Of a stretch of DNA of 64,000 nt, positions 28,469 through 30,254 are shown in pieces. Numbering within the stretch: position 1 is the stretch's first letter; every line of letters begins with the position of its first letter. The translations under genes were made by a program, and so were the position numbers. Below the pieces are notes generated by a model. It saw only the letters and a program-made list of their open reading frames with translations. It ran no database searches and was not told the origin of the DNA. Source of the DNA: Thalassospira sp. (GTDB taxonomy: Bacteria; Pseudomonadota; Alphaproteobacteria; Rhodospirillales; Thalassospiraceae); NCBI RefSeq assembly GCF_002709775.1, contig NZ_PAQR01000043.1, positions 15,192 to 79,191 of the forward strand, written 5' to 3'.

Positions 28469-29332
28469 TTATGGCTCAAGACTGCGGTGCAGGCCCGTGA
28501 CAAGTTCGCCGTAAGATGGCTCGTTGTCGGCGCTGAGATACCCGTGGCGGATCAGGAAATCAATCACCACCAGCGCGCAGTTGAACTTGAAATCAAAGCC
28601 GGTGCGGACCATCTCGGCCACCTCGGCGATGGGTAGAAGGTCAAACCGCTCGACCTCGCCATCGGCGCAGTGCGGGACAAAGTCTTCGGGCAATTCCAGA
28701 TCGAAATTGACCATGATGTCGGGCTTCAGGCCTTCGGCGGTTTCATACAGATAGGATACAGTGCCGATCGCGATGACGTTTTCAGCCAAGCTTGCCGGGA
28801 TGCCAGCTTCTTCGGCGCATTCCTTGATCATGTTTTCGCGAAAGCCAAGCCCGGTCGGTTGGCCGCCAGCCACCATATTGTCGAGCATGCCGGGATAGGT
28901 AGGTTTGTCCTGTGCGCGTTTGGCGATCCACATGTGAATGCCGTCCGCCTTGCGAACAAAGCCGTTCATATGCACGCCCCATGACCGACAGCCGAAATAG
29001 GGCATGGCAAAACGGTCAAGCTGACACAGCGGATCATCGGCAAGCCGATTGCGGATATCGAACTTCTCGCCGTGCAGGCGCTTTATCACGCCCTGTTCGC
29101 AAAGGGTTTCCGTGGCATCGATCAGGATCTGGTTGCGGTGATCAACGGTTTTGATGTGCGGACCAAACCCGTACTCGCCGTTCTCATCGCGGATGAAACT
29201 GTCGCCCAGCCCGGTGAGGGCCGTGGCAAATTCTGACCGGATGGCGCCGACCGGAAGGTTGCCAATGCGAAAGCGGGCATAGCGCGACAGATTGGCGTTG
29301 TTACAAGCATGGATGTGATCAAGATAGGCCAA
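28469..29332 (-). CDS. NUDIX hydrolase with DUF4743-type N-terminal domain
   Basis: YFGCRSWGVHMNG, WIAKRA, YPGMLDNMVAGG, Nudix-like box ENMIKECAEEAG, FKFNCALV. Confidence 0.85.
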   Translation of the reverse strand: MAYLDHIHACNNANLSRYARFRIGNLPVGAIRSEFATALTGLGDSFIRDENGEYGFGPHIKTVDHRNQILIDATETLCEQGVIKRLHGEKFDIRNRLADDPLCQLDRFAMPYFGCRSWGVHMNGFVRKADGIHMWIAKRAQDKPTYPGMLDNMVAGGQPTGLGFRENMIKECAEEAGIPASLAENVIAIGTVSYLYETAEGLKPDIMVNFDLELPEDFVPHCADGEVERFDLLPIAEVAEMVRTGFDFKFNCALVVIDFLIRHGYLSADNEPSYGELVTGLHRSLEP

Positions 29333-29392
29333 GTCGGAACTCCTGTCGGCAAGGGCGCTGCAATTTGCTGCAGCGCCGCGTGCCCGGACAGC

Positions 29393-29719
29393 CTACGCGC
29401 TAAGTGCGGAGTTTGAATAGCCCTTTTCCGAGGTCAGAACCGTATTCACGTGAATGATCTGTCGCAGGCAGCGCGCGATATGTTCAGCAACCTTGGTTTC
29501 AAGTTGCTGGACCTGGATATCGATCTGCAATTCTTCATAGCCACGCATCCCATCGGCAACGGTGGAATGCCAGCTGGCCGGAACAAGGTTGCGCTTGGCA
29601 AACAGTTCAAGGACACGCGGCATCACGTCCGGTTCGGCAGCGGCGTGAACGGAAAAACAGTAAACGGATTTGGGGGTATGTGCGTCGTGTGTGGACGCAG
29701 CAAATGCATGATCGGTCAT
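29393..29719 (-). CDS. Stand-alone ACT-domain protein (IlvM-like)
   Basis: FSVHAAAEPDVMPRVLELFAKRNL...IDIQV...CLRQIIHVNTV fits an ACT beta-alpha-beta-beta-alpha-beta pattern. Confidence 0.75.
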   Translation of the reverse strand: MTDHAFAASTHDAHTPKSVYCFSVHAAAEPDVMPRVLELFAKRNLVPASWHSTVADGMRGYEELQIDIQVQQLETKVAEHIARCLRQIIHVNTVLTSEKGYSNSALSA

Positions 29720-29747
29720 GACAATGCTCACAGATATTCAGTACATC

Positions 29748-29789
29748 AAAAAGGCGAACAGATACGTCCCGGTGTCCTTAGACAACCGG
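29748..29789 (-). promoter_or_regulatory. Putative attenuator RNA structure
   Basis: mRNA CCGG-U-UGUC-UAAG-GACA-CCGG (29789-29769) followed by a U5 tract (29752-29748). Confidence 0.5.
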
Positions 29790-29837
29790 GCTGATAATTC
29801 GCGCAATGATGACCGAAAGAATGCTGTGGTGTGTCAT
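29778..29837 (-). CDS. Putative Ile/Val/Leu-rich leader peptide MTHHSILSVIIARIISPVV
   Basis: 19 codons, 9 of them Ile (5), Val (3) or Leu (1). Its stop lies in the loop of a hairpin, 58 nt before the ACT start. Confidence 0.65.
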   Translation of the reverse strand: MTHHSILSVIIARIISPVV

Positions 29838-29913
29838 GAAGCTATTTAAAGAAGGGTCTCTTCAAAACCGAAAGGTTTGAATGGGGACACAAATGACGAA
29901 AGCGGAAGCCTGG

Positions 29914-30036
29914 TCAGATGACCAGAAGCGATGCGATGACAGCCAGAATGGTACCAGCGAACAGGATTTCCATCGAACGGGCGATCTGCTGTTCACGGGC
30001 AATGGCGATTGCAACGGCTTTGCGCTTATTCATCAT
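29914..30036 (-). CDS. Small 40-aa single-pass membrane protein (below the ORF-track cutoff)
   Basis: MMNKRKAVAIAIAREQQIARSMEILFAGTILAVIASLLVI. GGAG Shine-Dalgarno and strongly host-like codons. Confidence 0.7.
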   Translation of the reverse strand: MMNKRKAVAIAIAREQQIARSMEILFAGTILAVIASLLVI

Positions 30037-30254
30037 GTTTACTCCGTCTTCTGACAGGTAGTGGCAATGTGCCGCTCTCGGCACACGTCAAATATAGGCA
30101 GGCAAAAGCCCGAGTTACAAGAGTTCAGAGTCAAAAAACGTCAAAAAACTTTCAACCTCATGGAAAAGGTCACGTTTTTGATCGCTGTTTTGTCACAAAT
30201 TGGCTCGGCCTTTCCTGCTTGGGCTTCTGTATCGCTTCTCAGGGCTGCTCGCGA

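Follow-up and report, generated by a model that had tools for sequence, protein, structure and literature searches.

A conserved alphaproteobacterial leader with an Arg-Ile codon pair upstream of an orphan ACT-fold gene in Thalassospira: a candidate sensor of isoleucine supply

We analysed a 64,000-nucleotide (nt) stretch of DNA from Thalassospira sp. (contig NZ_PAQR01000043.1; the whole stretch is referred to as the window), in which a short upstream open reading frame (uORF) and a hairpin precede a gene for a stand-alone ACT-fold protein. In our reading, this leader belongs to a conserved class in Alphaproteobacteria that senses the supply of isoleucine via the translated mini-ORF; we give this somewhat better than even odds (roughly 0.55). 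It is suggested by an invariant CGA-AUU codon pair in the uORF, by a rod-like RNA fold in which the uORF masks the Shine-Dalgarno (SD) sequence of the ACT gene, and by the recurrence of the same element upstream of ileS and cimA. An earlier reading of the same DNA (the original prediction) had proposed a branched-chain amino-acid leader peptide with an ilvL-type attenuator in front of a lone IlvM-like ACT gene. The parts it listed, namely a 19-codon ORF rich in Ile, Val and Leu, its stop in a hairpin loop, a run of five U and the ACT gene, were all found (29837-29393, minus strand), and the attenuator was replaced by a different design.

A leader ORF with an invariant codon pair

The leader and the ACT gene lie on the minus strand, and coordinates are positions within the 64-kb window. 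The features are as follows.

29778-29837, minus strand: leader uORF, 19 codons plus stop, peptide MTHHSILSVIIARIISPVV*; ATG at 29837-29835, stop TAA at 29780-29778
29824-29837, minus strand: 5' strand of the outer helix in the minimum free energy (MFE) and centroid structures
29795-29801, minus strand: CGAAUUA (Arg CGA, Ile AUU, then A), overlapped by the 5' strand of closing stem P1 (GCGAAU, 29802-29797)
29768-29790, minus strand: GC hairpin P2, CCCGG-U-UGUC UAAG GACA CCGGG, beginning exactly 11 nt after the C of CGA
29754-29759, minus strand: 3' strand of closing stem P1 (GUUCGC, 29759-29754, paired with GCGAAU), which encloses P2
29748-29752, minus strand: run of five U (U5), 2 nt past P1 and 16 nt past P2, within the middle helix (UGAUG/CAUCA)
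29717-29731, minus strand: ribosome-binding site of the ACT gene, SD-like GUGAG (29731-29727) and AUG (29719-29717), both paired in the rod
29393-29719, minus strand: ACT-fold protein of 108 amino acids (aa), precomputed Pfam PF26954, a stand-alone family

Eighty orthologous ACT loci were taken from contigs of one genome per species. Metagenome contigs were scanned with a DNA motif pattern, which gave at least 80 loci and, among the matches listed, 81 motif instances; the metagenome counts of ACT, ileS and cimA neighbours given below likewise hold among the matches listed. Tallies of unique leaders refer to 52 genome leaders, with one of 254 nt (L053) omitted from the later tallies.

CGAATTA was present upstream of the ACT gene in 78 of the 80 genome loci, always in the frame of the uORF, and the two loci without it are contigs that end just upstream of the ACT gene. 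The complete motif pattern occurred exactly once per locus in 77/80 loci and once in the window. It was found in Thalassospira, Tistlia, Pelagibius, Kiloniellaceae, Stellaceae and Rhodovibrionaceae. A start ATG in frame with CGA was detected in 49 of the 52 unique genome leaders (4 and 1 for the other two frames) and in 71 of 74 metagenome leaders; one clade has a GTG 12 codons before CGA. The uORF AUG sits 8, 9, 10, 11 or 12 codons before CGA (24, 27, 30, 33 or 36 nt; 12 codons in the window), and these whole-codon distances imply insertions and deletions solely in multiples of three. Between -36 and +21, stop codons occurred in frame 0 in 2 of the 52 unique leaders, in frame +1 in 44 and in frame +2 in 25. 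Judged by this conservation, the 19-codon ORF is not a chance ORF but a conserved, in-frame leader ORF, in agreement with the original prediction.

Arg-Ile are the sole invariant residues of the uORF peptide, and their codons are always CGA and AUU. CGA accounts for 5.6% of Arg codons in the window genes and for 0.9% in GC-rich relatives, and AUU for 35% and 4.7% of Ile codons, respectively. CGA is decoded by the inosine tRNA-Arg, and impaired A-site decoding is known from yeast when the P site is occupied by an I:A wobble pair. The window peptide consists of Ile, Val or Leu at 9 of its 19 positions (47%); the content of these residues is 38% in Thalassospira versus 26% elsewhere, and Ile is enriched from position -3 to +2 relative to the Arg (24% of residues in Thalassospira, 15% elsewhere). 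Across the leaders, no conserved positions were found for Val and Leu in the uORF peptides, and some leaders hold a single Ile. The conserved Ile and Val codons anticipated for aligned orthologous leaders thus reduce to one invariant AUU, and the proposed tie to branched-chain amino acids is upheld for isoleucine, the same motif being found at ileS and cimA, but not for Val and Leu.

The window uORF stops at a UAA (29780-29778) within the UAAG loop of P2. This position of the stop codon is shared by Thalassospira and some other lineages, and a UAG in the 3' arm is used in Kiloniellaceae and Pelagibius; among metagenome leaders, 47 of 71 have their stop in the apical portion of P2. Upstream, a TTGAC box lies 36-39 nt before the uORF AUG in 34 of 38 non-Thalassospira genome leaders, so that the uORF would be leaderless or almost so outside Thalassospira.

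Two other uses of the ORF were considered and rejected. Frameshifting by -1 or +1 into the ACT frame lacks a slippery heptamer, the frame offset varies and stops intervene. For nascent-peptide arrest, the conservation of the peptide tracks that of the RNA, and the Arg and Ile codons never vary synonymously.

The leader RNA folds into a rod that masks the ACT ribosome-binding site

The 124-nt window leader has a folding energy of -44.6 kcal/mol (z = -4.5), which none of 200 shuffled sequences reached. Fold z-scores and MFE and centroid structures were also computed for 15 diverse whole leaders, whose z-scores ranged from -3.2 to -7.1. RNAalifold on MAFFT alignments returned no structure (alignment A2) or P2 alone (A4) because of register shifts and bulges. 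A covariance model (R1) was built with a hand-given structure from 18 equal-length sequences and gave one strong coding-strand match per locus (23-69 bits), with far lower scores on the reverse strand; window positions 29801-29754 matched it with 68.7 bits (E = 4e-18).

In the model-based alignment, double compensatory changes were seen at 6 of the 9 P2 pairs, and the sequence of P2 changes with compensation between leaders (CCCGGUUGUC/GACACCGGG, CCCGAACCC/GGGUUCGGG, CCCGAUCCUCC/GGAGGAUCGG). Paired cells amounted to 91.8%, compared with 84.1% in shuffled alignments, and the covariation score was 0.251 versus 0.136; 0 of 500 shuffles reached the observed score. The spacer between CGAAUUA and P2 is 4 nt long and gap-free in every aligned sequence. 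The pairing of leader GCGAA with a downstream UUCGC, which the original prediction had noted, was borne out as P1 (29802-29797 with 29759-29754): its CG, GC and AU pairs are invariant and the flanking pair covaries (GC 22, GU 9, UA 5, AU 1).

The early uORF codons pair with the SD sequence of the ACT gene, and the whole leader therefore forms one long hairpin, the rod. Such a single nested rod was obtained for 51 of the 52 leaders (uORF AUG to ACT AUG, 112-136 nt), L053 being the exception. From the outside inwards, uORF codons ~4-8 pair with the ACT SD region, followed by the middle helix, P1 and P2. In the outer helix of the window leader, AUGACA of the uORF (29837-29832) pairs with UGUCAU at the ACT start, and CCACAG (29829-29824) acts as the anti-SD strand for CUGUG of the SD region. 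Compensating anti-SD/SD pairs are found in other leaders, for example CUCCAUCGC/GCGAUGGAG and CCUCAAGGG/UCUUUGAGG. Of 10 SD nucleotides, a mean of 7.4 is base-paired, and the uORF supplies the partner for 6.8 of these; the distance from CGA to the ACT AUG is mostly 79-82 nt.

Sequestration of the ACT SD sequence and AUG by the early uORF codons is the feature conserved throughout, with the SD masked in nearly all leaders, which points to translational control. Transcription attenuation of the ilvL type, in which P1-P2 with the U5 run would be an intrinsic terminator blocked by stalling at Ile, Val or Leu codons, appears improbable to us. In its favour, the window has a P1-P2 fold of -22.4 kcal/mol, U5 2 nt behind it and a peptide that is nearly half Ile, Val and Leu, and leaders with a short uORF are richer in U (mean longest run 3.4; at least 4 in 12/29) than those with a long one (1.9; 2/20). 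However, Thalassospira leaders differ in their longest U run (1 to 6), with CCUAUUUGA, CCUGUUGGA or CCUAUGUGA at the U5 position in other members of the genus, and the tract is absent in many lineages. P1-P2 with U5 was not called by a terminator scan, and the U5 residues are themselves taken up in the middle helix. No competing antiterminator fold was seen in 51 leaders, and MFE and centroid structures agree. With a single conserved Arg-Ile pair in place of Val and Leu codons, and SD masking as the universally kept feature, the ilvL-type attenuator of the original prediction was not supported for the class as a whole, although P1-P2 with U5 may still have a terminator role in the window.

Some leaders carry additional structure. 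Two Pelagibius leaders (L065:3838-3935 and L071:3816-3911) have an extra GGGC...GCCC hairpin between P2 and the 3' strand of P1, and in several Kiloniellaceae and Denitrobaculum leaders two UUCG follow P2, so that two pairing registers are possible for P1. The ACT start codon of the window lies in a local hairpin, CAUGA-CCGA-UCAUG (29706-29720, minus strand), whose pairing is kept in 21/21 aligned Thalassospira sequences and which may help to mask the start codon.

Searches against Rfam 15 revealed no match at the element with E values up to 10; the surrounding 3.5 kb gave only three matches (E 1.2-4.3), all away from it and attributed to chance. A T-box-like tRNA-binding element was rejected in the absence of the conserved UGGN, and a K-turn or T-loop was considered and dropped. 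A DNA operator was likewise dismissed: ATTCGAAT forms a palindrome in some lineages, but CGAATTA alone is invariant, there are G-U pairs, and covariance-model matches are strand-specific.

The same element precedes ileS and cimA

The motif was followed by an ACT-family ORF in 54 of the 81 metagenome instances. At least 12 instances were located 74-175 nt upstream of ileS (TIGR00392, 824 and 737 bits, cut-off 621) and at least three 80-81 nt upstream of cimA (TIGR00977, 687 and 686 bits, cut-off 450). Two further instances precede apparently divergent or truncated ACT genes, and others lie at contig ends. Two motif-like matches without a uORF (L150:150-201 and 1899-1950) flank a REP-associated tyrosine transposase (NF047646, 201 bits); these are a repetitive extragenic palindromic (REP) element that fits the DNA pattern by chance and stand outside the leader class.

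All ileS and cimA leaders found contain an in-frame uORF (...R-I-x-x-P...) and the same rod, with the stop usually in the P2 loop, and they score 20-41 bits with the covariance model of the ACT leaders. The ileS leaders share the CGA-AUU pair, the 4-nt spacer, the GC hairpin and the closing UUCG with the ACT leaders. A promoter-like sequence (TTGAC-N17-TATCAT-like) precedes the ileS and cimA uORFs, whose AUG follows 7-10 nt after the -10 box. No Rfam match at gathering score was obtained for the ileS and cimA leaders. The isoleucyl-tRNA synthetase (IleRS) encoded at L094 is closest to Stellaceae proteins, and the Stellaceae lineage also holds the ACT leader (L061, L069, L070).

Citramalate synthase, the cimA product, is the first enzyme of the route from pyruvate to isoleucine. 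The same cis-element at ileS, cimA and the ACT gene thus marks an isoleucine regulon and, on the strength of this shared leader sequence, the ACT gene belongs to isoleucine homeostasis.

The ACT-fold protein

For the 108-aa protein, ATG 29719, which has GUGAG ahead of it, is the preferred start; GTG 29731 is less likely. The protein is 95-98% identical to other Thalassospira proteins. An AlphaFold2 model calculated with 90 homologues as input (mean predicted local distance difference test score, pLDDT, 83) has a beta-alpha-beta-beta-alpha-beta core, and Foldseek retrieved with similar scores (E ~1e-5) the ACT domain of Rel, E. coli IlvN (5ypp), the regulatory subunit of yeast acetohydroxyacid synthase (AHAS; 6u9d), PII and the ACT domain of phosphoglycerate dehydrogenase. 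At the level of the predicted structure, the ACT fold can be regarded as established.

An IlvM- or IlvN-like identity is plausible. The protein carries an RV.ELF..R motif (P-R-V-L-E-L-F-x-K-R-N/G) that resembles those of IlvN and IlvH, the IlvH motif being LSRV.GLF..RG.NI. Membership in the AHAS (acetolactate synthase) small-subunit family was not established: the corresponding NCBIfam model (NF008864) gave 14.9 bits, under its cut-off of 119, a local Pfam-A search revealed no match even at E = 10, and hence neither ACT_5 nor ALS_ss_C, and a search of the PDB sequences with the family profile found none. Of the IlvM-like protein originally predicted, the fold and the motif therefore remain.

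An exhaustive profile search collected 780 representative clusters, nearly all of stand-alone proteins of 90-130 aa. Over 90 family members, C21 and C84 are invariant, as are P30, P34, R35, R43, R86 and K99. Such a cysteine pair is atypical of IlvN/IlvH and could indicate a redox or metal site. By residue count, the protein is slightly acidic.

A gene-neighbour survey of the window and 32 orthologous loci over a span of ~4 kb found no gene for a catalytic acetolactate synthase subunit (a thiamin diphosphate (ThDP) enzyme), and the ACT gene is indeed a lone one, as had been predicted. The biochemical role can be approached through the fold, the resemblance to the IlvN/IlvH motif and membership in the regulon, from which we infer that the protein may be an IlvN-like regulatory partner of an enzyme of the branched-chain pathway. 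A starvation-induced exchange of subunits, as originally suggested, is speculation.

A model for isoleucine sensing

We propose that, as long as the uORF is free of ribosomes, the rod would keep the ACT ribosome-binding site shut, and that ribosomes on the uORF would open it. When charged tRNA-Ile is scarce, a ribosome would dwell with CGA and AUU in its P and A sites, respectively, and the GC clamp P2 at its mRNA entrance, and a following ribosome may queue on the first uORF codons, over the anti-SD strand. The site would then stay open longer and more ACT protein would be made, as would IleRS and CimA from their own leaders. The ACT protein would in this way be an effector induced by isoleucine starvation. 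The distance of 30-36 nt from AUG to CGA is about one ribosome footprint, which makes a queued ribosome on the anti-SD strand a reasonable assumption.

The cost of opening the site for the 30S subunit was modelled for the leaders in different states. It averaged 17.2 kcal/mol for the free leader. A ribosome placed on the uORF start lowered it to 9.8, one paused at CGA/AUU to 13.8, and the combination of a paused and a queued ribosome to 9.9; for the window leader the cost was 13.0 kcal/mol. In part, these calculated energies support unmasking.

Several observations weigh against this model. In an equilibrium calculation with a masked footprint, a single ribosome paused at CGA/AUU changed SD accessibility merely from 0.31 to 0.34, because the anti-SD strand lies just behind the footprint; transfer of the signal would therefore need the queued ribosome or kinetic and co-transcriptional effects. 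The TTGAC box is absent in 13 of the 14 Thalassospira-group leaders counted, including that of the window, and lies at 41 nt in the remaining one, and the Thalassospira uORF has neither an SD site nor a leaderless promoter. In ~40% of the ACT leaders, the stop is not in the hairpin and the uORF ends 8-56 nt past the ACT AUG, so that the position of termination is not essential. Finally, the invariance of CGAAUUA and UUCG exceeds the needs of simple pairing and could be explained by a bound factor.

The overlapping uORFs and the opening energies also bear on a constitutive coupling, by which uORF ribosomes would unfold the 5' structure and set a fixed ratio of ACT translation with no sensing of amino acids. 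An ORF ending 8-56 nt past the next start has the geometry of termination-reinitiation, and the largest modelled opening comes from a ribosome on the first codons. Such coupling leaves unexplained the invariant rare CGA-AUU pair, the fixed 11-nt distance to the clamp, the enrichment of Ile and the restriction of the motif to ileS, cimA and the ACT gene, and we regard it as very unlikely.

The invariance of the motif raises the possibility that CGAAUUA, the GC hairpin and UUCG form a unit to which a small ligand or a trans-acting factor binds, stabilising the rod, the uORF merely opening it. The candidates would be the Ile-loaded ACT protein, in a TRAP-like autoregulation of the Ile regulon, or a riboswitch-like element. 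Both strands of P1 and the unpaired UUA are constant beyond what pairing demands, and Thalassospira clade B keeps CGAAUUA despite a changed UUCG partner. ACT domains bind amino acids, their fold is also that of RNA recognition motif (RRM) and ferredoxin-like domains, the stand-alone ACT gene bears the motif itself, and ileS and ACT leaders occur together in the Stellaceae lineage. On the other side, the strict reading frame and the identity of the rare codons are explained by decoding and not by binding, the ACT protein is slightly acidic, no riboswitch of Rfam matched, and the apical and internal loops vary, with the exception of UUA. Overall, a binding site of this kind seems unlikely. That the orphan ACT protein itself is an isoleucine-binding, TRAP-like trans-regulator, which would lock the rods of its own, ileS and cimA mRNAs when isoleucine is plentiful and would work alongside the uORF, is a distant prospect in our estimation; we know of no ACT-only protein that binds RNA.

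Neighbouring genes and elements

A further gene lies directly downstream of the ACT gene.

28469-29332, minus strand: DUF4743-NUDIX hydrolase gene (Pfam DUF4743, 1.3e-15, and NUDIX)

It is a probable operon partner of the ACT gene. A DUF4743-NUDIX gene lies downstream of the ACT gene, in the same orientation, in 11 of 32 loci from several distant lineages; these include L037, L039, L057, L070, L075 and L078, and every Thalassospira locus examined has it. This Nudix family has been linked to the hydrolysis of damaged ThDP; acetolactate synthase being a ThDP enzyme, its link to the ACT gene may be meaningful. The 60-nt spacer between the two genes contains a perfect 9-bp GC-rich inverted repeat at 29354-29377 (GGCGCUGCA-N6-UGCAGCGCC), with no U tract after it.

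Upstream of the leader, a small ORF of 40-56 aa was found at 29914-30084 (minus strand; likely start ATG 30036; MMNKRKAVAIAIAREQQIARSMEILFAGTILAVIASLLVI), which encodes one hydrophobic helix. It lies ~77 nt upstream of the leader uORF, has a GGAG Shine-Dalgarno sequence and follows a promoter-like site at 30120-30091; in Thalassospira it could share a transcript with the leader. A hairpin, UUCAAACC-UUUC-GGUUUUGAA, is located at 29866-29886 (minus strand), 28-48 nt before the uORF AUG. It shows compensation among Thalassospira (AAACC/GGUUU, GAACC/GGUUC, GGACC/GGUCC), and a different GC hairpin takes its place in other clades. This hairpin may terminate transcription of the small gene upstream or stabilise the 5' end.

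Significance

The leader provides a first functional handle on PF26954, a stand-alone family with hundreds of representative clusters that are usually annotated as 'hypothetical', and adds an orphan ACT-fold protein and cimA to the genes that share the ileS-type element. Its design departs from textbook attenuators in having a single rare codon pair, a fixed distance to the GC clamp and a mostly leaderless uORF, and with CGA-AUU the use of a single codon as a sensor becomes testable. The control of tRNA synthetases in Alphaproteobacteria is poorly understood and, to our knowledge, T-boxes are absent from this class. The covariance model can be used to map the isoleucine regulon across Alphaproteobacteria. 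The system should be of interest both for the control of bacterial RNA and translation and for the annotation of orphan ACT proteins.

Comparison with known systems

Full-text literature searches found no description of this leader class apart from a single mention of an 'ileS leader CDS' in Caulobacter crescentus (CCNA_03934), which is supported by ribosome profiling and was used as a control, with no mechanism described (PMC4117421). The Caulobacter ORF is likewise a short, probably leaderless uORF before an isoleucine-related gene. In contrast to such ileS leader ORFs, the gene controlled here codes for an orphan ACT-fold protein and not for a synthetase, and the Thalassospira version lacks the TTGAC box at 36-39 nt and is much richer in Ile and Val.

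In the E. coli leaders pheM (pheST), ilvL (ilvGMEDA) and ivbL (ilvBN), decoding of a leader ORF likewise reports the supply of charged tRNA, as it putatively does here. Those leaders combine a series of regulatory codons with an intrinsic terminator and an antiterminator whose formation excludes it, whereas the present class has one invariant sensor codon pair, a single rod with no conserved terminator and SD sequestration. The latter resembles ermC and cat, where a leader ORF of ~19 codons (ErmCL) precedes a gene whose SD sequence is locked in a hairpin that involves the leader and is thought to be freed by stalling. However, erm leaders use an alternative fold of four segments and respond to an antibiotic through nascent-peptide arrest. 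In the present class, the anti-SD strand is provided by the first codons of the uORF itself, the presumed signal is the supply of tRNA-Ile, and the peptide is poorly conserved beyond Arg-Ile.

At the protein level, the ACT protein shares its fold (~80 residues) with IlvN, IlvM and IlvH, with E. coli IlvN and the yeast subunit among its best structural matches. In contrast to these proteins, it has the invariant C21 and C84 and never adjoins a large-subunit gene in the 32 loci, and the ACT domain of Rel matches its structure equally well. The leader is of a known kind, that of ribosome-mediated leader-peptide attenuation, with a different design.

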